From Idiomarina loihiensis L2TR (GTDB taxonomy: Bacteria; Pseudomonadota; Gammaproteobacteria; Enterobacterales; Alteromonadaceae), in assembly GCF_000008465.1 (NCBI RefSeq), contig NC_006512.1, positions 960,001 to 992,000 on the forward strand: a stretch of DNA of 32,000 nt, in the 5' to 3' direction. The notes below the pieces were generated by a model. It did no database searches. It was not told where the DNA came from and saw only the letters and a program-made list of their open reading frames with translations. Position numbers and translations under genes: made by a program. Shown piece after piece: positions 1 through 31,750 of the stretch (position 1 is its first letter; every line of letters starts with the position of its first letter).

Positions 1-176
1 TCTACAACACTCTCATCACTGATAAGAATATCGCTTCCAGGTTCTATACTGATAATTCGAGTCTCACCTTCTTCAAGATAGTAGGAGCTATGATTAACCT
101 CGGCCCGAGCACTAAGGGCGACGAAAAATAACAAAGTCACGACTAAGTAATGTTTGAACTTTACTGAACCTTCCAT
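1..176 (-). CDS. CpaC/RcpA-type pilus secretin, N-terminal fragment (gene runs off the left edge)
   Basis: My own minus-strand translation from the ATG at 176-174 gives MEGSVKFKHYLVVTLLFFVALSARAEVNHSSYYLEEGETRIISIEPGSDILISDESVV... It has a signal-peptide-like start (hydrophobic core, ARA) followed by the pattern of the pilus-secretin N-terminal region. The start overlaps the cpaB stop by 16 nt. The position after cpaB matches tad/cpa loci. At 58 codons it is too short for the ORF track. Confidence 0.45.
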   Translation of the reverse strand, partial: MEGSVKFKHYLVVTLLFFVALSARAEVNHSSYYLEEGETRIISIEPGSDILISDESVV

Positions 177-868
177 GGTTGCACCTTGCTTTGTTTAGAA
201 TCTTGATGCCAAATACTTGCTTGCTCTAAATGACGGCCTCTCGCCCAGACCAACATTGGACTTCCAATAGCTCTTGTAAATGCGGCTACCTTCTCGGGCT
301 CCACCAACAATGTCAGCGAATATGAACCATATCCCTCCTGCAAGCCGTGGATATCGAAAACCTCAATTTCTTCAAATGAAACGTATTGTCTTGAGTTTTC
401 AAAAGACTCCCCGACAAATACAATATCGACCAGATCTCCGACTTTCAGCAGCGCATTGTGGTGGCCTAAATTGTCCGTAGTGACCGTAATAGCGTAGTAA
501 CCGTTAGGCAGAACTTCCGATAAACCATTGTTCTGATTATTCGATAGAACGCGTTCAGAAACCGGTTCACCAGATTTAACAGAACTTCGCAGTTTCCTAC
601 CGATAATCAAATTAGCGGCGCTCTCCAAATACCAATGCTCATTGATAAGTTCGTGCGGATATTTTCGAACCAAGAGGTCGCTTACTTCTAAAATATCCCC
701 GACATTAAGATCTTTGGAAAAAACAACAACACTATCAGCATTTCCTGACGCCTCTTGAAGTCGTCGGGAAGTTTCTTGCTGTAGATATTGATTAATTAGA
801 AAAATCGTCACCATCGAAATTATTGAGCTAAAAATCACGGCAAAAATCCATTTCGCCTTTTTTTTCAT
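161..868 (-). CDS. cpaB: Flp pilus assembly protein CpaB/RcpC
   Basis: N-terminal TM segment (KWIFAVIFSSIISMVTIFLI). SAF-like segment VVVFSKDLNVGDILEVSDL...GRKLRSSVKSGEPVSERVL. RcpC-type C-terminal segment GYYAITVTTDNLGHHNALLKVGDLVDIVF. I trimmed the start to the ATG at 868, which is preceded by AGGAGGAGG and forms an ATGA overlap with the upstream ORF. Confidence 0.75.
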   Translation of the reverse strand: MKKKAKWIFAVIFSSIISMVTIFLINQYLQQETSRRLQEASGNADSVVVFSKDLNVGDILEVSDLLVRKYPHELINEHWYLESAANLIIGRKLRSSVKSGEPVSERVLSNNQNNGLSEVLPNGYYAITVTTDNLGHHNALLKVGDLVDIVFVGESFENSRQYVSFEEIEVFDIHGLQEGYGSYSLTLLVEPEKVAAFTRAIGSPMLVWARGRHLEQASIWHQDSKQSKVQPWKVQ

Positions 869-1056
869 GATCCTCCTCCTGGTATTAGTACTAAATAGCG
901 CCAAATAAAATAATAAAACTCTTTCGCCTCACGACCCACTTCAATTAAGTAGTCAATGAGTGAAAGTTGCTCTTCAACAACAAATAAAATGGTCATTATT
1001 AAGAGAGAGAGCAATAACCACTCTGTCGATGCCTGGCCATTTTGTTGTCTTCTCAT
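865..1056 (-). CDS. Flp-sized mini-pilin / TadE-F-like pseudopilin (63 aa)
   Basis: The N-terminus MRRQQNGQASTEWLLLSLLIMTILFVV has the Flp-type processing pattern: G, four residues, E, an aromatic, then a hydrophobic helix. ATGA overlaps at both ends (1053-1056 and 865-868) argue that it is translated as part of the operon. Confidence 0.5.
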   Translation of the reverse strand: MRRQQNGQASTEWLLLSLLIMTILFVVEEQLSLIDYLIEVGREAKEFYYFIWRYLVLIPGGGS

Positions 1057-1559
1057 AGAACATGAACCAAAATCACATACTCACCTTGCTCGGAGAACAT
1101 TAGGCTTCCCATATCTTCTTTAAAGATCCAAAAGTCATGGGGTTTCTCAATCGATTGAAAAGAATCGATTTTTTGGCTGTAAGTTAATTTTAATACGTTT
1201 TTTATATCTTTGAATTTGAATGTCGATAAATAAACCCAGACCTCTTTTCCATTTTTCCGGTTTTTTGAAATGGCATTAAAAGGCCCGTCAAGCTTAGGCT
1301 TTTCCATATACGGAAGAATTATTTTACTTAAAATCCATGAACCATCATTTCCTTTGAAGAAAGTCCAGTTGTCTTCTCCAATTGGACAGATCCAAAAATC
1401 TCCATGAGGGGCTGGACAGTAGGAATAGAAATCTTCAATAACACTCCAGTCTGGAACATTAGGACTTTGTAAAAAATAAGCAGTAGCCGTCGCATTCTGA
1501 GAAATTGGCATTTCAGACCATTCCCATTTATCAAACCCTGCAGGAATATCAGCAATCAT
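1053..1559 (-). CDS. Hypothetical protein, paralog B of a tandem pair (168 aa, no signal peptide, Trp-rich)
   Basis: Long ORF that is clearly paralogous to 1667-2167. Shared blocks: W.W.E.PIS, PDW, FY.YCP, FW(I/L)CPI, W(T)FF.G..G.WIL and YSQK(I/V)DSFQSIEK..D.WI.KEDMG...FSEQGEYVIL.H.L. Its stop overlaps the start of the next gene (ATGA). Confidence 0.7.
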   Translation of the reverse strand: MIADIPAGFDKWEWSEMPISQNATATAYFLQSPNVPDWSVIEDFYSYCPAPHGDFWICPIGEDNWTFFKGNDGSWILSKIILPYMEKPKLDGPFNAISKNRKNGKEVWVYLSTFKFKDIKNVLKLTYSQKIDSFQSIEKPHDFWIFKEDMGSLMFSEQGEYVILVHVL

Positions 1560-1666
1560 ATACGCACCTTAATTAAAGCTTTACTAAGAATTTGTTACAG
1601 CTAAACCCACAGATTTTTAGAAAAGTAATTTTCCATTTTTATGTAGATAAATCTTTAGTATTCCAG

Positions 1667-2167
1667 TCATAAATAATGTGCCAAAATCACATATTCACCT
1701 TGTTCAGAAAAAACTACGCGCCCCATATCTTCTTTTAATATCCAAACATCATTTTCTTTCTCAATAGATTGAAAAGAGTCTACTTTTTGGCTGTAATAAG
1801 ACATCATTGCCGTTTGCAATGGTTTAAGCGGATATCTAGCTAAATAAATCCATATCTTTTCTCCATTACTTTCATATCCTGAAATTGGAGTAATGGGTCC
1901 CTTTAAAGATTCTTCATGTCCTGGAGACTTAGTCAGTGGCATTAGTATCCATTGTCCGTTTTCTCCCTCAAACAACGTCCATTCAGTATCTTCTATGGGA
2001 CAAAGCCAAAAAATTATTTCCCCTCCGGGACAATATGGATAAAACTGGCTCAACTCTTTCCAGTCAGGAATTTCTGGTTTTCTCAAAAAAAGAGCATCAA
2101 TATTGATGGATGAACTAATCGGTTGCTCAGCCCAGCTCCAGTCCTCTAAAACTACGGGTAAATCCAT
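1667..2167 (-). CDS. Hypothetical protein, paralog A of a tandem pair (166 aa, no signal peptide, Trp-rich)
   Basis: Paralog of 1053-1559 (see that entry). Its start lies 2 nt downstream of the tadE-like stop. I do not recognise the family. Confidence 0.7.
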   Translation of the reverse strand: MDLPVVLEDWSWAEQPISSSINIDALFLRKPEIPDWKELSQFYPYCPGGEIIFWLCPIEDTEWTLFEGENGQWILMPLTKSPGHEESLKGPITPISGYESNGEKIWIYLARYPLKPLQTAMMSYYSQKVDSFQSIEKENDVWILKEDMGRVVFSEQGEYVILAHYL

Positions 2168-2169
2168 AA

Positions 2170-2709
2170 CTATTCCTTTTTTTGAAGTACTTCCTCGGGC
2201 ACGACATCTGGAGATATCGTACCGAAAACTAAATAATCGGAACTAAGCTCTTTAGCCAAAAAAAGTGAGCTAAGCCCATCTTGGATTAATTCTGTTATTT
2301 CTCCCGAGAGTAAGTTATTTACAACTAAAGACGCAGGCCTAGTCGATAGCTCCTCGCTGCTTCTTGCCTGCCAACTATCTGTTAACCTACTCATTGGATA
2401 AAAAGGTTTTTTATCCAGTTTCTTCAACTCTCTTAAGTTTTTCCCTTGGAGCTTTACTGGAAGAAGTCTATTTAGAGGGATAAATAACTTTTCTGTATGT
2501 TTATTTAGCCGATACTCTCCCGATAATTGAGCTCGATCAACATCCATAACCCTGCTCCAAATAATTTTACGAGCCTCAATAAGGTTAACGGTACTGTTGT
2601 TAATCGCAGGTATAAGGACTTGATACAACGACAAGTAAATAGCTAGCAAAATACCAATTGATAACATGACCTCAACAGTAGCTTGACCTTTACATTTAAA
2701 GCGCATCAC
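2170..2709 (-). CDS. TadE-like pseudopilin
   Basis: The N-terminus MMRFKCKGQATVEVMLSIGILLAIYLSLY matches the TadE-type motif (G.a.vE followed by a hydrophobic helix). It overlaps the upstream tadG-like gene by 14 nt. Confidence 0.65.
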   Translation of the reverse strand: MMRFKCKGQATVEVMLSIGILLAIYLSLYQVLIPAINNSTVNLIEARKIIWSRVMDVDRAQLSGEYRLNKHTEKLFIPLNRLLPVKLQGKNLRELKKLDKKPFYPMSRLTDSWQARSSEELSTRPASLVVNNLLSGEITELIQDGLSSLFLAKELSSDYLVFGTISPDVVPEEVLQKKE

Positions 2710-3919
2710 GACCTAAAATTCCTGTTTTATCTTTATAAGATATTGAAGTTAGCTGAGGCTCCCAGAGCGCATTAAACAAGTTATCCGTTTCATAAAGATC
2801 ATCTTTTCTATAGAAGATTTTGTCTGGACGACTAAAATGCGTTTTTGCTTTAGCATATGCAACTTGGTTACTGTCCCCCACTTTTATTATCACCGTATCC
2901 ATGCCCATCTTTAAAAAGTTGCTTAGCCGCATATAGCTAAATTTTTGTGGGTTCGAATTAAACGACTCCATCTGCGCCAAACCAAGTCTGGAAGACATAG
3001 AATTACTTTGAAAGGCTGCACCATAACCAGAGCGATGATAACGTCTTTGCTGTTGTGCTTTAGCGCCCCAGCCTAATGGCAATTGCTCCCGAAAACTTCC
3101 TACGAACCATTTTCGCCCGTGAAGCGAAACGGAATCCAGCGCATGCCAGTCCCAGCCTCCGTTTCTGTTCCTTGATAATTCTGTTCCTCCACGCTTTATT
3201 ATTTTATGAGTGAATACGTCTATCCAGTTATATCCTCTGGATTTGCTGAAGGGATCCAGACTTTTCAGTGTCAACTCTTCTAGTTCTTTTGATTGTCTTT
3301 CATTACTGGTTTTACGGACTTCTGTTTTGCGCCACCAAAGAGTTGGAAATGGCACAACACCACCTCCCTGATACGCTTCCCAACTTAGATCTCCTGAATG
3401 TTTAGAAACGATATCTTGAATAAGAAGTGGTAGCTCCAAGACGAAACTTGCATCTAAAAGTCTCTGTGCCGCTGATATTCCCTGTATCACAGCCGATTGA
3501 AAACGGATTAAGACGCGCGCCAATTGCTGATAAGCTTCCTCGACTCGGTCGAGAATGGTTGATAACACTCTGGTTATTTGCCCGATATAAGGAATGAATG
3601 ACGTTACTGTCTCTAAGTTGTCCGCCGTCCGGTCTAACATAGACATATAGCTCGCTAGACCAACCCACTGAGCTATTGCTACCTGGTTTCCAATAAGTGC
3701 ACGATTTGTTAAAGCTAGAAAATTCATCTGCCGGGACATAGCAACAGCTGCGCTATAAGCCGCGTTATCAGCAACACTTTGCAAGTACCATTGACGCCGG
3801 GCGTGTTTTCCCATGTCCGTTACAGCGAAAAGCAACATCGAAACGAGTAACAAAACCCCGACCATTAAAATCAGGGTTTGTCCTTTTATTCGCGTATTGG
3901 ATTTTCCCAAAGCAATCAT
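2696..3919 (-). CDS. TadG-like Flp pilus assembly protein (Tad N-terminal domain)
   Basis: The N-terminus KGQTLILMVGVLLLVSMLLFAVTDMGKHARRQWYLQSVADNAAYSAAVAMS matches the TadE/G-like pilus-assembly N-terminal pattern (TM helix, D.G, then aaDaAA.Aaa). ATGA overlap with flp (3916-3919). Confidence 0.65.
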   Translation of the reverse strand: MIALGKSNTRIKGQTLILMVGVLLLVSMLLFAVTDMGKHARRQWYLQSVADNAAYSAAVAMSRQMNFLALTNRALIGNQVAIAQWVGLASYMSMLDRTADNLETVTSFIPYIGQITRVLSTILDRVEEAYQQLARVLIRFQSAVIQGISAAQRLLDASFVLELPLLIQDIVSKHSGDLSWEAYQGGGVVPFPTLWWRKTEVRKTSNERQSKELEELTLKSLDPFSKSRGYNWIDVFTHKIIKRGGTELSRNRNGGWDWHALDSVSLHGRKWFVGSFREQLPLGWGAKAQQQRRYHRSGYGAAFQSNSMSSRLGLAQMESFNSNPQKFSYMRLSNFLKMGMDTVIIKVGDSNQVAYAKAKTHFSRPDKIFYRKDDLYETDNLFNALWEPQLTSISYKDKTGILGRDAL

Positions 3920-25906: not shown

Positions 25907-25916
25907 ATACCGATTA

Positions 25917-25944
25917 GTGGCTCGCTCTCAGCGAGCCACTTTTT
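25917..25944 (+). terminator. Rho-independent terminator after ychF (at the convergent junction with the globin gene)
   Basis: Perfect 9-bp GC-rich stem gtggctcgc / gcgagccac with a 5-nt loop, followed by ttttt. Confidence 0.75.
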
Positions 25945-25949
25945 CCTCA

Positions 25950-26357
25950 TTACTCTTCAACAATATCGCCATGCATTGGCGCCAGCACGCCCAATAACTG
26001 ATTCTGCGCTGAAACCGGCACATCCTCTTTTTCCATTGCAGCAATCAAGTGTTCGACTAAAGCGTTAAAATCCGCATTGTCGACTCCCATATTACGATGG
26101 GAAGTTTTCATATCCTCGCCACTGTAATCACAAGGACCGCCACTTAAGTCACACACTTGTTCACTAATGAGTTTGTGCACACGCATAATATCAACACCAT
26201 CAAAATGATGCGCAATACGCTCATCACCACCCACCCGATAGAGCATTTCTTCGACGATAGTCTCTATGCCCTGCTGCTCACCCAGTTGCTGATACAGACT
26301 CTGAGCAAAGCTAAGCGGCGAAAACAACAAGACCGCCATTAACAAAACGGTTTTCAT
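25950..26357 (-). CDS. Truncated (2-on-2) haemoglobin, group I-like, with an N-terminal Sec-type signal peptide
   Basis: After MKTVLLMAVLLFSPLSFA|Q the sequence follows the trHb pattern. It has LYQQLGEQQGIETIVEEMLYRV (B10 Tyr), GGP.DY.G and DMKTSHRNMGVDNADFNALVEHL (proximal His). RBS AAGGAGAG lies upstream. Confidence 0.75.
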   Translation of the reverse strand: MKTVLLMAVLLFSPLSFAQSLYQQLGEQQGIETIVEEMLYRVGGDERIAHHFDGVDIMRVHKLISEQVCDLSGGPCDYSGEDMKTSHRNMGVDNADFNALVEHLIAAMEKEDVPVSAQNQLLGVLAPMHGDIVEE

Positions 26358-26366
26358 AGTCTCTCC

Positions 26367-27221
26367 TTAAAAGGCTGCCTGAACCGATAAATACCAACCC
26401 GTTTGATCATCCAGGCCGGCAATCGAGCCCAGATCGGTGTAGGCACCAACGACCGATACATGTTTATTCGGGAAATAAGCAACAAAAAGATCTTTCCAGT
26501 CCTGCTCTTGAGCAAAACTTAAGTTGTCCGGTTTCTGTCGGTACTCAACGCCTACAGCCCAATAACGATTAATAAACGCAGCTACGGAAGCTTCAGCCAG
26601 CCACTCGCGTCCATCTTCTTTATCGCCGCCAAAGCCCAGTAAGCCCAATTGATTAGCTTTACTTGAACGCAAAGTCAGATTAGCAACCCAGGTACGGTGG
26701 AAAGGCCCGTCTAGCCAGGCTTTTGCCGCACTGACATACCAGTCGGTGCCACTGTCATCCTGAGAGCCTACCGCCGCTGGCAACTCATAATCGTTGTTCT
26801 TCTTATGTTGTAAACCCAGGCTTATTTGCGGTAGGCCACCATAAATTAAGTCTCCTGCCAAACGTACTTTTGCACCAACAATGCTTTGGCTCAATTCGCC
26901 GCCAATAGTGGAGAGATCAAAGGTTTGTTCAGCATACGAAAGCTCAATACGGTTGTTCCAGCTCAAACTGGCGCCCTGAACACTTAAGCGGAAATCATCA
27001 ACTGAAACTTCACTTAAGTTAACCGTCGCGCCAAATTGGCCTTCACCGGCATAACTGCTTAACGTAGCCCAGGGCACTATGCCTCCGCCGCCAGAGCCTT
27101 CAAGACTACTGGTACCACCGGTCGCTAGTAATCGGGCTCCCTGATCCGCTGCTGCAGGCGGGGTTAAAGCTAGAGCACAGGTCAGCAAAAAACCGCCACC
27201 ATATAAACACTTGTTCATCAT
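26367..27221 (-). CDS. Outer-membrane beta-barrel-like protein (DUF3034-like by recollection)
   Basis: Signal peptide (...LTPPAAA|D), a Gly-rich segment LATGGTSSLEGSGGGGIVPWATL, alternating amphipathic strands and a C-terminal aromatic residue (SVQAAF), as in OMPs. Confidence 0.6.
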   Translation of the reverse strand: MMNKCLYGGGFLLTCALALTPPAAADQGARLLATGGTSSLEGSGGGGIVPWATLSSYAGEGQFGATVNLSEVSVDDFRLSVQGASLSWNNRIELSYAEQTFDLSTIGGELSQSIVGAKVRLAGDLIYGGLPQISLGLQHKKNNDYELPAAVGSQDDSGTDWYVSAAKAWLDGPFHRTWVANLTLRSSKANQLGLLGFGGDKEDGREWLAEASVAAFINRYWAVGVEYRQKPDNLSFAQEQDWKDLFVAYFPNKHVSVVGAYTDLGSIAGLDDQTGWYLSVQAAF

Positions 27222-27227
27222 TCGTTA

Positions 27228-29522
27228 TCATCCATTGGTTTCATGGTTATTTAAGTAATCTATAAAGCCTGAAATTGGTAAGGGTTTGCTAAAGAAATAG
27301 CCTTGCAACTCATCGCAATGCATCGACTGCAACACTCTCCAGCTATCCTCATTTTCCACACCTTCTGCAACGACACGAAGACCTAACTCGTGAGCTAAGT
27401 GTATGGTTGAACGAACAATAGATTTGTCCTTAGACTCCTCGCTCAAATGCTGCACAAAGGCCCGGTCTACTTTCAATTCCTCTACTGGTAAACGGCGCAA
27501 TTGTGCCAATGAGGAGTGACCGGTACCGTAGTCATCAATTGATATTGAAAACCCAAGACGCTTCAATGTTTCCAGCCGGGCAATGGCTTTTTCCGGGTCT
27601 TTCATTACCGCACTTTCTGTAATTTCCAGTACCAGTAATTTTGGCAACTCAGGAAAATCAATAATGAGTTGTTCAAACAGCAAGGGTAAGGCGTCGCTCA
27701 ATAAGTCGACGGTTGACAAATTGATGCTCAATTTTAAAGTTCGCCCCTGCTCATGCCAGCTCTGAAGCAGTTTGGCCGACTCTCTGCACACCCAGTTGGT
27801 CAACTCTGTAATGGCTCCGGATTGCTCTGCTAACGGAATAAATTCATCCGGTCCGACAAATCCGAGCTTATCACTTTGCCATCTCAACAATACCTCAGCC
27901 CCCACCAATGAACCCGTCTGGCAATTAATTTTAGGTTGCAGTACAAGATGTAGCTCCTTATCCGCTACTGCGTCTTTAAGGGACTCGATAATTTGCAGGC
28001 GCCGCATGTATTGTTCGTCCAACCCACTTTTATATTCAACATAAAAGCTCTTCTGGAGTTTGGACTGCTGAACACTGACTTGCGCGCGACGAATAAGTAA
28101 GTCGACCTCGTTGCCATGCCCAGGAAAATAAACAACACCGATATTAAAGGCCAGCCGATAATCACTGTCGCCGACTTTAAAAGGCGTATCAAGAAAAGAG
28201 TGAAGCTCTTTAATTTTGTTGTCGAGATCGAATTCGGACTTATCAGAAGCGTATAAAACAGCAAATTCGTCGCCACCGATGCGAGCCAATAATTCAGCGT
28301 TGCCACAACACCACTTCAGCCGGGCAGATAACTGACGCAGGATGTCATCACCGATTTCCTGCCCCACACTGTCGTTGAGAACTCTGAATTGATGAATATT
28401 CAACAATAACAGGCATCCGGAGCTGGTATTGCCATCTAAACGGTACTGTAACTGCTCACGGAAAAACGAACGATTCGGTAAATCGGTTAAATGGTCATGA
28501 GATGCCTGATAAGAAATTCTTTTTTCACGTTCGGAAATAGCCTTGCGCATGCTGCCAAAGGTATTCGCCAGCTCTCCGAACTCATCGTCGTTCAGCGACA
28601 ACTCGGATTCGCTGTAGTCGCCTTGCTGTAATTTCCTAGCCGCTCCCGATAACTGCTGTAACGGACGGGAAACCCCTCGGGCTATAATCGCCGCTAAAAG
28701 CATAGCTATAACCAGAGCGACAATTGCAATTAAAGCAATTTGCCAATGCAGCCGTGTGAACTCGGCGGCCGCCGTTTCAAGTGACGTTGTCAATGCCACA
28801 TGAACGGCGTCATCGGAACCGGCATCAAGCACCACTTCACTCCCCGCCAGTTCCTGGCTTAACAGCCAGTTATCAAGAGTATGACCGTCTTTGTTCAGGG
28901 CTTTTGCAAACGAGGACACTTGTCGGGCCTCCAAACTGGAAGCAATGACTTTTCCCGAGTTCTCCAGCCACAGGGTGATATCGGCATTAGCCAGGTTTTT
29001 TAACTCTTCTGCTAACCCCGAATCCACTTCAAAACCTAAGGTTGCCCAGGCAATAAGATTTGGAGCATTAACCGGTACTGTAACCAGTTGAAACAGTTCT
29101 CCTTCGACAACCGCCAGTTCACTGTTCGAGCCTGCCCCACTATGTCTAATACGTAGCTTATCAAAAGCATGAGATGATGCTATTTCTTCGCCCTCGGGAG
29201 TTTGCAGCACCATCAACTCAGCTTCAATACGCTCACCGTAATTGACCAAAGCTGACACTATGGTTTCCCGATCTTTTGAAGCCACCGCGCGTTTAAACCC
29301 AAAATCGTCGGTAAGAACTTCTGCCGCTTGCAACAACTGAGCGCTACGGCTATCCAGAAGCTCCCGGAAGACTCTTTCACTAACACTAAGCTCACGTTCA
29401 ATGGAGCGGCCTAACTGATTCTCTGTAGCGACCCAAACTGCAGCTAACGCAACCAACAAAGCGCCAGCTACAAGCCCTGCAAGGATGAGAACTAAACGGG
29501 TTCTGAACCGTGTTATCATCAA
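27228..29522 (-). CDS. Bifunctional diguanylate cyclase/phosphodiesterase: TM, ~235-aa periplasmic sensor, TM, HAMP, GGDEF, EAL
   Basis: Two hydrophobic segments (about residues 9-31 and 266-288). HAMP-like segment RPLQQLSGAARKLQQGDY. GGDEF motif RIGGDEFAVLY (28263-28277). EAL-domain residues GAEVLLRW, SINLS, LEITES, DDYGTGHSSL, KVDRAFV, VAEGVENE and QGYFFSKP. Confidence 0.9.
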   Translation of the reverse strand: MMITRFRTRLVLILAGLVAGALLVALAAVWVATENQLGRSIERELSVSERVFRELLDSRSAQLLQAAEVLTDDFGFKRAVASKDRETIVSALVNYGERIEAELMVLQTPEGEEIASSHAFDKLRIRHSGAGSNSELAVVEGELFQLVTVPVNAPNLIAWATLGFEVDSGLAEELKNLANADITLWLENSGKVIASSLEARQVSSFAKALNKDGHTLDNWLLSQELAGSEVVLDAGSDDAVHVALTTSLETAAAEFTRLHWQIALIAIVALVIAMLLAAIIARGVSRPLQQLSGAARKLQQGDYSESELSLNDDEFGELANTFGSMRKAISEREKRISYQASHDHLTDLPNRSFFREQLQYRLDGNTSSGCLLLLNIHQFRVLNDSVGQEIGDDILRQLSARLKWCCGNAELLARIGGDEFAVLYASDKSEFDLDNKIKELHSFLDTPFKVGDSDYRLAFNIGVVYFPGHGNEVDLLIRRAQVSVQQSKLQKSFYVEYKSGLDEQYMRRLQIIESLKDAVADKELHLVLQPKINCQTGSLVGAEVLLRWQSDKLGFVGPDEFIPLAEQSGAITELTNWVCRESAKLLQSWHEQGRTLKLSINLSTVDLLSDALPLLFEQLIIDFPELPKLLVLEITESAVMKDPEKAIARLETLKRLGFSISIDDYGTGHSSLAQLRRLPVEELKVDRAFVQHLSEESKDKSIVRSTIHLAHELGLRVVAEGVENEDSWRVLQSMHCDELQGYFFSKPLPISGFIDYLNNHETNG

Positions 29523-30175
29523 TTCCCTCTACGATTAAAGCGCTGTTCCAGCCGCGACGGCTCTTTATCTTTCTGCACCGGCGGTGATACTTGCACCTGC
29601 GCGGTTAGCTTCCCTGAATCTGAGGCTAATTGCACGCTCTGTGCTTTAGACAATTCGTCCCCCATCCAATAATGCCAAACCTTGATTTCAGCGGGCGGTT
29701 CTCTTTCTTCCAGATTAAGCTCCGCAATACCTTGTTCATTCGTTACAGCAACATCATATTCGTCACTTACCAACACATAGGCAACCATCTGGTCGTGAAT
29801 ATTGCACCCGAGAGTCACTATGCCAGCTTTATCAAAATTAACACTTGGCTTTTCTTTATCGGAATAAAGTTTTAACTCAAAATTCTTAGCCTCAGAAAAA
29901 GAGTAAACATGGTGTCGAATGTTATCACTGTTAGGAAAAACAACGTCAGTGCCAGGCTCTACTGCGCTAACCGTGGGCGTAAACTGCTTGTCCACCTGAT
30001 CAACTACCGCCGACTGCCCAGGCACTTTGACAGACGGCTTTTCCCTCTCAATTAATAGTGCAGCATTTGCCAACGGCTGACCATCTGCGGCCACAACCTC
30101 AACCGTTACGGTATCTGCAACTACGTTTTGAACCACAGATGCCATGAAAAAAACACCAACAAAAAATCGCTTCAC
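29519..30175 (-). CDS. Secreted cupredoxin-like protein (family often annotated 'methylamine utilization protein')
   Basis: GTG start after GGAGG. Signal peptide MKRFFVGVFFMASVVQNVVA|D. Candidate type-1 Cu ligands are His in NIRHHVYSF and C-x2-H-x2-M in LGCNIHDQM. ATGA overlap with the downstream GGDEF-EAL gene. Confidence 0.65.
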   Translation of the reverse strand: MKRFFVGVFFMASVVQNVVADTVTVEVVAADGQPLANAALLIEREKPSVKVPGQSAVVDQVDKQFTPTVSAVEPGTDVVFPNSDNIRHHVYSFSEAKNFELKLYSDKEKPSVNFDKAGIVTLGCNIHDQMVAYVLVSDEYDVAVTNEQGIAELNLEEREPPAEIKVWHYWMGDELSKAQSVQLASDSGKLTAQVQVSPPVQKDKEPSRLEQRFNRRGN

Positions 30176-30367
30176 ACAGGATCCTCCACAAAATCACCAT
30201 TGGGCGCACATCAGTCAACCGTAACCGAAAAAACGAAATTGCGCTATGATTGGAGTACGTATTAATGATCCACTATGGTTCATTATTGGTATTTGAAATA
30301 CTCAGTGGCGACATACTAATTTCGATACGAAGCTTTTACTCTTAAGCTTATGACAGGAGGGATATTC

Positions 30368-31750
30368 ATGAGTCAGGATTATCGCACAGAGAAAGACAGT
30401 ATGGGCGAGGTCAAAGTCCTCTCAAAAGCACTTTATGCTGCACAAACTCAACGCGCCGTTGATAACTTTTCCATCAGCGGGTTAACCTTACCCACTCAGT
30501 TAATACAAGCCATCGCAATGGTTAAAGCGAGTGCGGCCGGAGCAAACGCTAAAATCGGTCAGTTAGAAAAGGAACAGGCTGGCGCCATTATTAAAGCGGC
30601 TAAAGAAATCATTAACGGTCAACACTTAGAGCACTTCCCTATCGATGTATTTCAAACCGGTTCAGGCACCAGTTCCAATATGAATGTGAACGAGGTTATT
30701 GCCAATTTAGCTAAACAAAACGGTGTTGAAATTCACCCCAATGACCATGTAAACCAAAGCCAGTCAAGCAACGATGTTATACCTACCGCCATTCAGGTAG
30801 CGAGTGTGCTGGCTGTAGAAAAACAGTTAGAACCGGCTTTAAAAGGTCTTATTGACACCATTCGCAAGAAAGCCATTGAGCTACGCAATGTGGTAAAAAC
30901 CGGCAGAACCCATTTAATGGATGCCATGCCAATGACCATGGCGCAAGAACTTGAAGCCTGGGCGGGTCAGTTGGACATTACCGCTGAACAACTTCCACAG
31001 TTATTGCAGCGCAGCCGAGTTCTTCCTCAGGGCGGTACAGCAATAGGTACCGGAATAAATGCCCCTAAAGAATTCGCAGCTGAGTTTGCCGAACAGTTGA
31101 CTCAGCTTAGCGGCAGTGACTTTAAACACTCCGCGAACCCTTTTACGGGTATTGCCGGACAGGAAATCAATTTACAACTCTCGGCACAACTGAATACGCT
31201 GGCGACTACCTTACTCAAAGTCAGTAACGACTTACGCTGGATGAACAGTGGACCACTGGCGGGCTTAGGCGAAATTCAGCTAACCGCATTACAACCCGGA
31301 AGCAGTATTATGCCGGGTAAAGTGAACCCGGTTATTCCGGAAGCTGTAGCTATGGTTGCCGCTCAGGTAAATGGTAATCACACCACAATTACAACCGCAG
31401 CTCAGCAAGGCAACTTCCAGCTAAACGTTATGCTGCCGGTTATTGGCTACAACTTACTACAGTCCATTAATATACTCAGTAACAGTTGTGAAGCTCTGGC
31501 AAGCAAAGCTATTGCCGACTTCGAGGTTAATGAAGAGCGACTGCAACAAGCTTTAGCGAAAAACCCTATTCTGGTAACGGCTCTTAATCCGGTCATTGGC
31601 TACAATAAGGCCGCTGAAATTGCCAAAGTAGCTTATAAAGATGGCAGAGCCATTATCGATGTTGCTGATGAGATGACCGACTTAGGTCGTGACCGGCTGG
31701 AGCACTTGCTGGACCCGAAAAAATTAACTGAAGGTGGCGTTAGCGAATAG
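30368..31750 (+). CDS. fumC: Class II fumarate hydratase (fumarase/aspartase superfamily)
   Basis: EKDSMGEVKV...AQTQRAVDNF, QTGSGTSSNMNVNEV, SQSSNDVIPTA, GRTHLMDAMP and GSSIMPGKVNP are mostly FumC-type blocks. The start is trimmed to the ATG at 30368, after AGGAGGG. Confidence 0.85.
   Translation: MSQDYRTEKDSMGEVKVLSKALYAAQTQRAVDNFSISGLTLPTQLIQAIAMVKASAAGANAKIGQLEKEQAGAIIKAAKEIINGQHLEHFPIDVFQTGSGTSSNMNVNEVIANLAKQNGVEIHPNDHVNQSQSSNDVIPTAIQVASVLAVEKQLEPALKGLIDTIRKKAIELRNVVKTGRTHLMDAMPMTMAQELEAWAGQLDITAEQLPQLLQRSRVLPQGGTAIGTGINAPKEFAAEFAEQLTQLSGSDFKHSANPFTGIAGQEINLQLSAQLNTLATTLLKVSNDLRWMNSGPLAGLGEIQLTALQPGSSIMPGKVNPVIPEAVAMVAAQVNGNHTTITTAAQQGNFQLNVMLPVIGYNLLQSINILSNSCEALASKAIADFEVNEERLQQALAKNPILVTALNPVIGYNKAAEIAKVAYKDGRAIIDVADEMTDLGRDRLEHLLDPKKLTEGGVSE

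Follow-up and report, generated by a model that had tools for sequence, protein, structure and literature searches.

A conserved four-gene envelope locus of Idiomarina loihiensis as a putative cupredoxin- and globin-fed input system for c-di-GMP signalling

Why should a secreted cupredoxin-like protein, a membrane-bound GGDEF-EAL protein, a predicted outer-membrane barrel, and an exported truncated haemoglobin be encoded side by side? The question is raised by four minus-strand genes of I. loihiensis L2TR, lying in the window, i.e., the whole stretch of 32,000 nucleotides that we analysed. The initial annotation had described these genes as one operon and could not relate their composition to any characterised system.

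Organisation of the locus

All four genes were recovered as open reading frames (Table 1) and their coordinates uphold the operon-like packing, the 6-nt gap between the sensor and DUF3034 genes and the 9-nt gap between the DUF3034 and globin genes being both correct. On the contrary, the ATGA overlap reported between the cupredoxin and sensor genes is not there: positions 29522-29519 read TTGA, the cupredoxin gene stops at TGA (29521-29519), and the sensor gene starts either at TTG 29522 or at ATG 29519, the latter giving a 1-nt overlap (TGATG). The neighbours in the window are the convergent ychF (+) and a fumarase/aspartase-family gene.

The strong hairpin said to end the unit is present as a perfect stem (dG -21.5 kcal/mol, z = -4.8), but its limits had to be corrected from 25917-25944 to 25916-25940, and it is common to ychF. 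Since its T-run is clear only on the + strand, the minus-strand tail being merely AAUCGGUAUUU, it is the ychF terminator at least as much, and likely a bidirectional terminator of the ychF and globin genes. The divergent region ahead of the cupredoxin gene carries GGAGGA as its ribosome-binding site, offers only a weak match of the sigma-70 type (30311-30282), and is without Rfam elements.

Table 1. Features of the locus, in window coordinates
Feature	Position (nt)	Strand	Residues	Details
Cupredoxin-like gene	29519..30175	-	218 aa	GTG start; ORF list
Sensor GGDEF-EAL gene	27228..29522	-	764 aa	ORF list
DUF3034 gene	26367..27221	-	284 aa	ORF list
Truncated haemoglobin gene	25950..26357	-	135 aa	ORF list
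GC-rich hairpin	25916..25940	.		between convergent ychF (+) and globin gene (-); 11-bp stem, 3-nt loop
Divergent intergenic region	30176..30349	-		174 bp; upstream of cupredoxin gene
Sensor TM1	29492-29436	-	11-29	hydropathy
Sensor periplasmic dCache_3	29408-28917	-	39-202	Pfam match, E 6e-12
Sensor TM2	28739-28683	-	262-280	hydropathy
Sensor HAMP		-	280-330	Pfam
Sensor GGDEF		-	340-491	Pfam, E 2e-31
Sensor EAL		-	513-747	Pfam, E 7e-72; catalytic motifs all intact
Cupredoxin Cu ligand codons	29914-29912, 29806-29804, 29797-29795, 29788-29786	-	H88, C124, H127, M130	
Globin proximal His	26099-26097	-	His87	
Globin Cys pair	26153-26151, 26132-26130	-	Cys69/Cys76	

The four products

Three of the products were expected to be exported, and they do carry signal peptides, called by visual inspection and hydropathy; orthologues keep leaders or lipoboxes. 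The 218-aa protein, which is 100% identical to an I. loihiensis protein publicly named "methylamine utilization protein" or "plastocyanin/azurin family", gave no family match in Pfam or NCBIfam. We nevertheless identify it as a cupredoxin because structure prediction and conserved ligands agree. Its AF2 model (pLDDT 86.7) has the Greek-key beta-sandwich of cupredoxins, and Foldseek searches of the PDB were led by amicyanin, pseudoazurin, and plastocyanin (E 3.5e-6 to 1e-4, prob 1.0), with an rmsd of about 2.1 A over ~98 columns for pseudoazurin. Behind a signal peptide (approximately residues 1-21), H88, C124, H127, and M130 fall in a profile alignment on amicyanin H53, C92, H95, and M98, i.e., a His plus Cys-x2-His-x2-Met set with the amicyanin spacing, in agreement with the type-1-Cu-like site that had been predicted. 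The four ligands are kept in 18/18 diverse homologues and in all 82 locus copies, the second figure being partly circular, as the search patterns used for the loci contained these motifs. Copper binding itself is inferred from these residues.

The globin is a member of the group-1 truncated haemoglobins, both by Pfam (Bac_globin PF01152, E 6e-12, 46.2 bits versus a cut-off of 21) and by its best PDB matches (HbN, E 4.9e-15). The proximal His, Phe52 at CD1, and the Cys pair are invariant over 58/58 locus copies; among 78 representative globins, the His and the Cys pair are found in all, whereas the residue at CD1 is Phe in 74 and Tyr in the other 4. This supports the haem-type globin initially recognised, haem occupancy being deduced from the conserved residues. 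Of the trHbN hallmarks, sequence membership, His F8, and Phe CD1 are thus met; the Tyr B10/Gln E11 hydrogen-bond network is not, since it is absent from the window globin and from its exported clade. In Idiomarina, the distal positions are apolar (B10 Leu39, E7 Val60, E11 Ile64), and across the clade they are almost always aliphatic or Phe (B10 L/I/V, E11 L/I/V/F, E7 L/F/V). The protein had been called secreted: a signal peptide (residues 1-18/19, SFA/QS) does direct its export, but in most species it is predicted to be a lipoprotein rather than soluble. Indeed, a lipobox-type Cys stands right ahead of the globin domain in 47/58 locus globins (43 by strict pattern, 4 by eye), and a hydrophobic leader is present in 75 of the 78 representatives. 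By these sequence traits, the exported globins are a distinct clade, mostly of putative lipoproteins.

The DUF3034 protein matches PF11231 over its full length (E 1.5e-109, 365.9 bits versus a cut-off of 25). It consists of a signal peptide, a highly conserved Gly-rich segment near the N-terminus (about residues 30-57), and a predicted 12-strand beta-barrel, and ends on an aromatic residue (...QAAF). The AF2 model shows the 12 strands with modest to moderate confidence (pLDDT 69, pTM 0.71) and is matched in Foldseek by outer-membrane barrels and channels, i.e., FapF, OmpG, NanC (TMt 0.67), KdgM (TMt 0.83), and the COG4313 channel. With its signal peptide, closed antiparallel barrel, and C-terminal aromatic residue, the protein fits the outer-membrane assignment made earlier, at moderate model confidence.

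In the sensor, about 230 periplasmic residues are enclosed between two TM segments that lead to HAMP-GGDEF-EAL (hydropathy, Pfam), much as had been described. The GGDEF motif is intact (residues 416-420), without an RxxD I-site, and the EAL catalytic motifs (E-x-L, N, E-x-T-E, DDxGxG, K-x-D, EGVE, QG) are complete, reading AEVLLRW, INLS, LEITES, DDYGTG, KVDR, AEGVE, and QGYFF. Over 71 sensors, a count that takes in 70 orthologues, DD(F/Y)GxG and EG(V/I/L)(E/D) are present in every one, and GG(D/E)EF is intact in just 23; in the four-gene loci, it is intact in 12/54 and degenerate in 42/54. Therefore, the output of the family is mainly c-di-GMP hydrolysis. The "c-di-GMP turnover" proposed at first suits the window protein, where both domains are intact and which, given its GGDEF motif, may be bifunctional, but not the family, which mostly has an EAL phosphodiesterase output. 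All scores against the named NCBIfam equivalogs (DibA, GepA, DosP, HmsP, YfiN, and others) stayed below cut-off, e.g., 291 versus 857 bits for DosP and 124.6 versus 325 bits for YfiN.

Linkage across genomes and exchange of the output domain

Relatives of the cupredoxin occur in at least 599 species-level genomes. We compared 81 loci, i.e., the best 80 cupredoxin loci of these genomes plus locus L001; because the 80 are the best-scoring relatives of the Idiomarina cupredoxin, the architecture fractions may not hold family-wide. In 75/81 loci, a gene beside that of the cupredoxin encodes a sensor that shares the periplasmic domain, and all four genes are together in 55/81. Absence of such linkage would, according to the initial annotation, have refuted its proposal; the outcome is clearly positive. 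Within the 81 loci, DUF3034 was never detected without the globin (56/56), and in the 57th globin locus the globin gene lies at a contig end. L084 has DUF3034 and globin genes without adjoining cupredoxin or sensor genes. Conversely, in 13 loci whose flanks are adequate, the cupredoxin and sensor genes are accompanied by neither DUF3034 nor globin, and hence the globin half is not obligatory. Look-ups started from DUF3034 returned the same four genes, and those started from distant exported globins found the set again in Thermomonas and in L090.

This linkage withstands rearrangement. The four families co-travel across Gamma-, Beta-, and Alphaproteobacteria in at least three orders: cupredoxin>sensor>DUF3034>globin; DUF3034 on the minus strand beside globin>cupredoxin>sensor; and DUF3034>globin>cupredoxin>sensor, seen on a Caballeronia megaplasmid whose RefSeq annotation gives exactly these four names. 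The flanking genes are unrelated, differing in every genome. Recurring in dozens of distantly related genomes, the four-gene linkage is far beyond chance.

The envelope proteins also occur in combination with other outputs. In L051 and L054, a full-length cupredoxin precedes a dCache_3-HAMP-adenylate/guanylate cyclase, and in L085, L086, and L088, the order DUF3034>globin>cupredoxin is followed by a TM-HAMP-PAS-histidine kinase, the cupredoxin being here of 106-107 aa with the same C-x2-H-x2-M motif as the full-length form. Because they are found ahead of kinases and cyclases too, the envelope proteins behave as a portable input module. An output domain that varies (EAL, cyclase, kinase) beside constant envelope proteins is a pattern typical of input modules.

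A proposed mechanism and its competitors

We propose, with a probability of roughly 55%, that the four genes form one envelope-spanning c-di-GMP signal-input system fed by the cupredoxin and the globin, its contacts and signal being inferred. The set resembles a sensor of gas or redox state in the cell envelope that has yet to be characterised. The inner-membrane dCache_3-HAMP-GGDEF-EAL protein would be the transducer, with c-di-GMP hydrolysis by EAL as its conserved output. Its dCache_3 domain is probably not a direct reader of small molecules, and we infer that what it senses is the state of the cupredoxin, which would dock on it as LuxP does on LuxQ, NspS on MbaA, and YfiR on YfiN. The globin (lipid-anchored in most species, soluble in Idiomarina) and the DUF3034 barrel, whose role is conjectural, would make up the outer-membrane-side half. 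A ferrous haem in a fully apolar distal pocket would be expected to bind a diatomic gas, for which NO is our first choice, in analogy to the NO-selective H-NOX proteins, and O2 the second. Once the globin has bound its ligand or become oxidised, either its electron exchange with the type-1 copper or its binding to the cupredoxin would alter, a change that would be relayed via HAMP to the EAL domain. The contacts among the four proteins are inferred, with no experiment and no complex prediction in support; what the signal is (NO, O2, redox, or Cu) and in which direction the system responds to it are likewise inferences. Moreover, as gases pass membranes freely, it is not obvious why a gas sensor should sit in the periplasm and be combined with an outer-membrane barrel. 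Type-1 Cu potentials usually exceed those of globin Fe(III)/Fe(II) by a wide margin, and reduction of the haem by Cu(I) would therefore be uphill.

The globin, cupredoxin, and barrel could instead be a periplasmic detoxification or electron-transfer pathway, with the globin as NO dioxygenase or small oxidase, the cupredoxin as electron donor, and a signalling gene that is merely co-regulated or senses a product of the pathway. HbN-type truncated haemoglobins are the closest solved relatives of the globin, and M. tuberculosis HbN acts as an NO dioxygenase, but its O2-stabilising Tyr B10 and Gln E11 are aliphatic throughout the exported clade. Cupredoxins are classical one-electron carriers, which the fold matches would suit, and in cable bacteria, periplasmic truncated-haemoglobin domains fused to multihaem cytochromes are proposed oxidases (PMC11976967); here, however, the clusters of related loci do not share a reductase, a cytochrome, or any further redox gene. 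As a transmembrane signalling protein almost always adjoins, and its output is swapped while the envelope proteins stay unchanged, we regard this pathway as unlikely.

It is rather improbable that the module senses or handles copper, the apo or holo cupredoxin reporting periplasmic Cu to the sensor, DUF3034 being a Cu or haem channel, and the globin having an accessory or storage role. Such a function would not explain why DUF3034 is almost obligatorily paired with a haem globin, and cop or cus genes are not linked in the window or related loci. The invariant Cu site does adjoin the sensor in those 75/81 loci, globin-less ones included, and cupredoxin-like periplasmic proteins of Cu tolerance exist, e.g., CopI; yet the affinity of type-1 sites for Cu is very high, and they are not known to act as reversible Cu sensors.

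The layout over three compartments, with a component in the outer membrane, a partner in the periplasm, and a c-di-GMP enzyme in the inner membrane, also recalls YfiBNR, and the TM-HAMP part of the sensor gives weak matches, below the respective cut-offs, to YfiN and to a "YfiR-like-associated" kinase model. The cupredoxin and globin would then be cofactor-free scaffolds that relay envelope stress in the manner of YfiB/YfiR/YfiN. We find this very hard to accept: although overall identity is only 35-50%, all four Cu ligands, the proximal His, and the CD1 Phe are invariant, which makes a loss of the cofactors difficult to credit. Finally, an accidental neighbourhood of four unrelated envelope genes in Idiomarina, favoured only by the absence of experimental data, is refuted by the comparative genome data, in which the families recur jointly in dozens of genera with differing flanks and orders.

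Comparison with known systems

The system that we favour, an envelope input feeding a c-di-GMP enzyme, has no characterised counterpart of this four-part composition in the searchable literature, consistent with the failure of the initial annotation to find one. Its parts do have relatives. Amicyanin and MauL-type cupredoxins share the fold, the His...Cys-x2-His-x2-Met spacing, and the signal peptide, but the Idiomarina protein is twice the size of amicyanin, having in addition a beta domain at the C-terminus as well as a basic tail, and its type is locked to a signalling gene. A relation to MauL itself is presumed from a database name only. The cupredoxin gene is not part of a mau (methylamine dehydrogenase) cluster: its neighbours in the window are the sensor, DUF3034, globin, ychF, and fumarase/aspartase-family genes, and no mau genes were seen in related loci with Pfam or RefSeq annotation. 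With group-1 truncated haemoglobins (M. tuberculosis HbN, Paramecium and Chlamydomonas trHb), the globin shares family, His F8, Phe CD1, and the GGP motif; its clade differs by being exported or lipidated, by the invariant Cys pair C-x3-G-G-P-C, and, compared with HbN-type proteins, by an all aliphatic or Phe distal pocket.

Globin-coupled sensors (EcDosC, BpeGReg, HemAT) and DosP likewise control c-di-GMP synthesis or hydrolysis through haem domains. However, theirs are cytoplasmic N-terminal fusions to the output, made of 3/3 globins (PAS-haem in DosP), whereas the Idiomarina globin is a truncated 2/2, separate, and extracytoplasmic polypeptide; with a signal peptide on this 135-aa protein and a TM-dCache_3-TM N-terminus on the sensor, membership of that group was discarded. 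In the systems of H-NOX with HaCE (H-NOX-associated c-di-GMP enzymes; Shewanella woodyi, Legionella) and of NosP, a separate haem protein is likewise encoded beside a GGDEF-EAL enzyme and the likely logic is the same, i.e., a gas ligand switching c-di-GMP hydrolysis; NO-selective H-NOX also has an apolar distal pocket without a hydrogen-bonding Tyr. These proteins are cytoplasmic and of unrelated folds, while the Idiomarina haem protein is an exported 2/2 globin, usually lipidated in its clade, accompanied by a cupredoxin and an outer-membrane barrel and by a transducer that senses the periplasmic side. None of the four products matched H-NOX (HNOB), and the haem protein being a globin, the locus is not an H-NOX/HaCE system.

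In YfiBNR (TpbB), too, one operon serves three compartments: it encodes a component of the outer membrane, a partner in the periplasm, and a HAMP-coupled c-di-GMP enzyme of the inner membrane. None of its proteins is homologous to the Idiomarina four, it works without metal cofactors, and a cyclase, not an EAL phosphodiesterase, is its output; with no match of the cupredoxin, DUF3034, or globin product to YfiR or to YfiB (Pal/OmpA-like lipoprotein), and a YfiN score under the cut-off, membership was excluded. LuxP-LuxQ and NspS-MbaA, MbaA being also a GGDEF-EAL protein, offer another parallel: in both, a separately encoded periplasmic protein is the real ligand-binding unit of a transmembrane sensor. 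Their partners are solute-binding-protein folds for AI-2 or polyamines, whereas the Idiomarina partner would be a type-1-copper cupredoxin.

Organisation of the unit and its surroundings

The four genes follow one another head to tail, with junctions made of a 4-nt overlap, then a 6-nt gap, and then a 9-nt gap. The two spacings are those of the initial annotation; the overlap between the cupredoxin and sensor genes, read there as ATGA, is actually TTGA; with the ATG at 29519 as sensor start, it would be TGATG. AAGGAG precedes the globin start and GGAGGA the GTG of the first gene. On its upstream edge, the unit faces a divergent fumarase/aspartase-family gene whose substrate assignment is ambiguous (522 bits vs. 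a curated cut-off of 665 bits for class II fumarase; 504 vs. 510 bits for aspartate ammonia-lyase). Downstream, the unit had been proposed to end at a strong hairpin. Such a hairpin does bound the globin gene on this side, but its location had to be corrected and its T-run lies on the strand of ychF, for which it is at least as likely a terminator; a terminator of the four-gene operon only is thus ruled out.

The more distant flank consists of housekeeping genes (hemA, lolB, ispE, prs, ctc, pth, and ychF). An Rfam scan of the whole window, including the leader region, gave no RNA element, and a PADLOC scan gave no defence-system match. A duplication within the window, considered for two ORF pairs of equal lengths (281 and 423 aa), was dismissed since the proteins are unrelated. 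Farther away, a segment of lower GC content contains small minus-strand genes, among them those for a TadE/G-like Flp-pilus protein and a SAF-domain protein, and may be a Tad/Flp pilus island. The DUF3369 response-regulator architecture is often found with an HD-GYP c-di-GMP phosphodiesterase domain; on this general background only, the DUF3369 gene of the window may be its second c-di-GMP-related gene.

Location of the four genes and of neighbouring features in the window
Feature	Coordinates	Strand	Remarks
Cupredoxin-like gene, 218 aa	30175-29519	minus	ORF call, head to tail with the next three
Sensor gene, 764 aa	29522-27228	minus	ORF call
DUF3034 gene, 284 aa	27221-26367	minus	ORF call
Truncated haemoglobin gene, 135 aa	26357-25950	minus	ORF call
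Divergent intergenic region, 174 bp			Upstream edge of the unit, next to the fumarase/aspartase-family gene
Hairpin, 11-bp stem	25916-25940		Between the globin gene and convergent ychF; dG -21.5 kcal/mol, z = -4.8
Fumarase/aspartase-family gene	30350-31750	plus	Divergent neighbour
Segment with small minus-strand genes	1-3919		GC 0.36-0.41 vs. ~0.47 elsewhere
Response regulator with DUF3369 domain, 490 aa	16133-17605	minus

The four encoded proteins

The 218-aa cupredoxin belongs to no Pfam or NCBIfam family and a sequence-only PDB search also gave no usable match, so that structure prediction and profile search were needed. Its AlphaFold2 model (pLDDT 86.7, pTM 0.80) matches amicyanin, pseudoazurin, and plastocyanin in a structure search of the PDB (E 3.5e-6 and weaker, prob 1.0), and a profile alignment superimposes H88, C124, H127, and M130 on the amicyanin Cu ligands H53, C92, H95, and M98. 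The cupredoxin fold and the type-1 Cu-like site of the initial annotation are borne out in this way, Cu binding itself being inferred. The motifs FPNSD..RH.VYSFS and LGCNIHD.M are invariant across 18 aligned homologues with identities as low as 35%. After the cupredoxin core (~residues 55-140), the model shows another small beta domain and, at the C-terminus, a basic helix; the N-terminus (MKRFFVGVFFMASVVQNVVA, followed by D) resembles, as judged by eye, a Sec signal peptide. The product is 100% identical to an I. loihiensis protein, and databases name it 'methylamine utilization protein' or 'plastocyanin/azurin family'; the methylamine label is a homology-derived name, without any mau context.

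The 135-aa product is a group-1-type truncated haemoglobin, a separate polypeptide carrying, as first read, a signal peptide (…LSFA, followed by QS; the leader was not scored by a dedicated predictor). An exhaustive globin search gave 3379 matches at E<=1e-3, and 78 single-domain representatives were examined. All 58 copies found at the loci compared retain the proximal His, Phe at CD1, Tyr78, and two Cys residues around GGP (C69/C76); His, Tyr78, and the Cys pair are also invariant in the 78 representatives, CD1 being Phe in 74 of them and Tyr in 4. In this clade, position B10 is Leu, Ile, or Val, not Tyr; E7 is Leu, Phe, or Val; and E11 is Leu, Ile, Val, or Phe, not Gln. A lipobox-type Cys, never followed by Asp, stands directly ahead of the globin domain in 47/58 locus copies, its place being taken by a signal-peptidase-I type leader in Idiomarina and Pseudidiomarina. 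The invariant Cys pair fits an oxidising compartment and, as far as can be judged from sequence, these globins are a new exported clade with a putative disulfide-type Cys pair and a predicted apolar distal pocket. Cable-bacterial cytochrome fusions include periplasmic truncated-haemoglobin domains (PMC11976967), which makes export of this fold plausible, although their context differs. The top of the globin search (P0241-P0260) is occupied by giant proteins that string together 3-12 truncated-haemoglobin domains in tandem (e.g., P0241, 1882 aa; P0244, 1386 aa), some of which retain the C…GGPC.Y motif; the shorter tandem proteins P0242, P0243, P0247, and P0252 start with a lipoprotein-type leader.

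The 284-aa product is a full-length DUF3034 protein (E 1.5e-109). The outer-membrane barrel suggested for it is supported by a moderate-confidence model (pLDDT 69), which predicts 12 strands and matches FapF, OmpG, NanC, KdgM, and the COG4313 channel. The most conserved part is a Gly-rich segment ahead of the barrel (T34, G35, G42, G45-47, P50, W51, and Y57), placed without confidence in the model.

In the sensor, strong TM segments at residues 11-29 and 262-280 flank a dCache_3 domain, and HAMP, GGDEF, and EAL domains come after them. The named NCBIfam equivalogs (DibA, GepA, DosP, HmsP, LapD, and YfiN) are all far under their cut-offs, and a sequence search found no solved relative of the periplasmic domain. 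A conserved patch covers L70-R98, with D73, F76, T87, S90, N94, and R98 among its residues. In Idiomarina, GGDEF and every EAL catalytic motif are intact, and the window sensor contains no RxxD I-site. Since the EAL motifs are present in 71/71 sensors and GG(D/E)EF is mostly degenerate (intact in 23/71, and in 12/54 among four-gene loci), the family consists primarily of phosphodiesterases; the Idiomarina enzyme may be bifunctional. The c-di-GMP turnover first proposed as output hence stands on its EAL side, but has to be narrowed mainly to hydrolysis for the family as a whole. Deletion of Pseudoalteromonas marina cdgD, which encodes a dCache_3-GGDEF-EAL protein, lowers biofilm c-di-GMP about threefold (PMC11190208); cdgD may be an orthologue of the sensor gene, a suggestion with no sequence comparison behind it. 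In two Methylophaga loci (L016, 12175-13620 (-), and L065, 12011-13429 (-)), a convergent second gene directly after the four-gene cluster encodes the same type of periplasmic sensor domain with GGDEF only, and may provide the phosphodiesterase with a partner cyclase.

Linkage across genomes and exchange of outputs

At least 599 cupredoxin relatives were obtained when each GTDB species, represented by a single genome, was scanned with patterns; in the best 80 of these loci, together with locus L001, ORFs were called and searched with iterated profiles of the window proteins. Co-occurrence across genomes, which the initial annotation had put forward as its own test, was found: all four genes are present in 55/81 loci, and a sensor gene with a matching periplasmic domain adjoins the cupredoxin gene in 75/81. 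Among the four-gene loci, 42 of 55 (mostly Gammaproteobacteria) show the order cup>sensor>DUF3034>globin and 10 (mostly Betaproteobacteria) have DUF3034 on the (-) strand beside globin>cup>sensor, other orders accounting for 3. With adequate flanks, 13 of the 81 loci contain only the cupredoxin and a GGDEF/EAL sensor, and 3 the cupredoxin alone. No DUF3034 gene without a globin gene was found among the 81 loci (56/56 DUF3034-bearing loci have one); the globin gene is present in 57, the extra one (L015) lying at a contig end. Architecture fractions and ligand invariance are biased here, because the 80 loci are best-scoring and were fished with two motif patterns. Free of this bias are the 18-sequence alignment and the look-ups from the other genes: those from DUF3034 (Shewanella psychrotolerans and Granulosicoccus antarcticus) and from distant exported globins (Thermomonas and locus L090) gave the same four genes. 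A Caballeronia megaplasmid presents a fourth order, DUF3034>globin>cup>sensor, under the RefSeq names 'DUF3034 family protein', 'group 1 truncated hemoglobin', 'methylamine utilization protein', and 'EAL domain-containing protein'. The genes flanking the set differ everywhere in the genomes compared. Such a co-localisation, kept through rearrangement and relocation, is strong evidence of functional coupling.

Other compositions also occur. In Roseateles amylovorans (L084, 4845-8232), DUF3034>globin is followed by two ~250-aa proteins without family, cupredoxin and sensor not being in that place. On Comamonas aquatica plasmid p1_SCLZS63 (143 kb; L091, 5012-8966), a DUF4394 gene lies upstream of a cupredoxin and EAL-sensor pair, near type IV pilus and shufflon genes and without DUF3034 or globin.

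The output itself can be exchanged. A dCache_3-HAMP-adenylate/guanylate cyclase follows the cupredoxin in Aliikangiella and in one Verrucomicrobiae MAG. Three unrelated genomes (L085, L086 from Rhizomicrobium, and L088) present the order DUF3034>globin>cupredoxin>TM-(4HB)-HAMP-PAS-histidine kinase, with a cupredoxin of only 106-107 aa that has a signal peptide, the motifs FSNQDEFIHQIY…RCHIHPKM, and the C-x2-H-x2-M spacing of the full-length protein, and that matches the core of the cupredoxin profile (E 2e-8). Envelope proteins that stay constant as transducer and output vary behave as an input module. Genes for a ChrR-like Cupin_7 anti-sigma factor and an ECF sigma factor adjoin the kinase cluster of L088 (8720-10345) and, in L089 (349-4252), an exported globin of two domains ahead of two cupredoxin genes, without DUF3034; this pair may be a fourth regulatory output for globin and cupredoxin.

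A putative envelope sensor, its alternatives, and known systems

Three apparently exported proteins with conserved metal ligands, a transducer with a predicted periplasmic domain, linked genes, and swapped outputs are what the sequences support directly. They sustain and extend the initial interpretation, namely a genuine signalling module of the envelope, widespread and as yet uncharacterised, whose cofactors, contacts, and signal are inferred. The cupredoxin, the most constant neighbour of the sensor and kept where globin and barrel are missing, would contact the periplasmic domain of the transducer directly, with L70-R98 as candidate interface. Globin and DUF3034, found together, the globin usually lipidated, would form an outer-membrane-side unit. 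NO (or O2) would be bound by the haem, whose predicted pocket is apolar like that of H-NOX, and the state of the haem could reach the cupredoxin via electron transfer or sequestration, as in YfiB/YfiR; the reading favoured is control of c-di-GMP hydrolysis by NO or redox state.

We consider this general model of an envelope sensor for c-di-GMP slightly better supported than not (roughly 0.55), and have much less confidence in NO or redox as its specific signal. To a further, tentative proposal we give somewhat less than even odds: DUF3034 would join a type-1-copper cupredoxin and a truncated haemoglobin, exported and in most cases lipidated, in a so far unrecognised portable sensor of a diatomic gas or redox signal. 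In hundreds of species of proteobacteria, this sensor would be connected to c-di-GMP phosphodiesterases, to histidine kinases, and, at least in the case of the cupredoxin, to nucleotide cyclases. The model has weak points: the barrel is without explained role, there is no obvious reason for a gas sensor outside the cytoplasm, and Cu and haem potentials may be mismatched. Its rivals are a pathway of the periplasm for NO detoxification or oxidase activity, copper sensing, and scaffolds without cofactors. Chance adjacency of the four genes is excluded.

To our knowledge, the bacterial sensors known to link O2, NO, and redox cues with c-di-GMP and with biofilm decisions are all cytoplasmic haem proteins (H-NOX, NosP, and globin-coupled sensors). 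The system described here is widespread (at least 599 species-level genomes) and places a truncated haemoglobin outside the cytoplasm, where it is paired with a barrel of the outer membrane and a blue-copper protein; if the portable gas or redox sensor exists as proposed, no dedicated sensory role would have been known before for a 2/2 haemoglobin, nor a haem-copper relay outside the cytoplasm. Both DUF3034 and the family misnamed 'methylamine utilization protein' receive a concrete context that can be tested, which for DUF3034 is the first functional one. A sensor role for 2/2 haemoglobins is an open question in globin biology, and the operon of Idiomarina, Pseudomonas, Shewanella, and Alteromonas offers a tractable means of asking it.

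The initial annotation could match this four-part composition to no characterised system, and a literature search on combinations of DUF3034, MauL/cupredoxin, truncated haemoglobin, and c-di-GMP likewise found no description of the cluster in the papers searched. In its inferred working it is closest to H-NOX/HaCE and NosP, whose c-di-GMP enzymes are controlled by a haem protein that is a separate polypeptide, and the likeness to YfiBNR, LuxPQ, and NspS-MbaA is one of layout; the module is a member of none of them, since their defining protein families are absent. Nor is it a globin-coupled sensor, its globin being of the 2/2 type, unfused, and exported. This globin lies in the trHb1 sequence family, but fails the distal-site signature of that family. 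We regard the module as a new form of partner-protein and haem-based c-di-GMP control.
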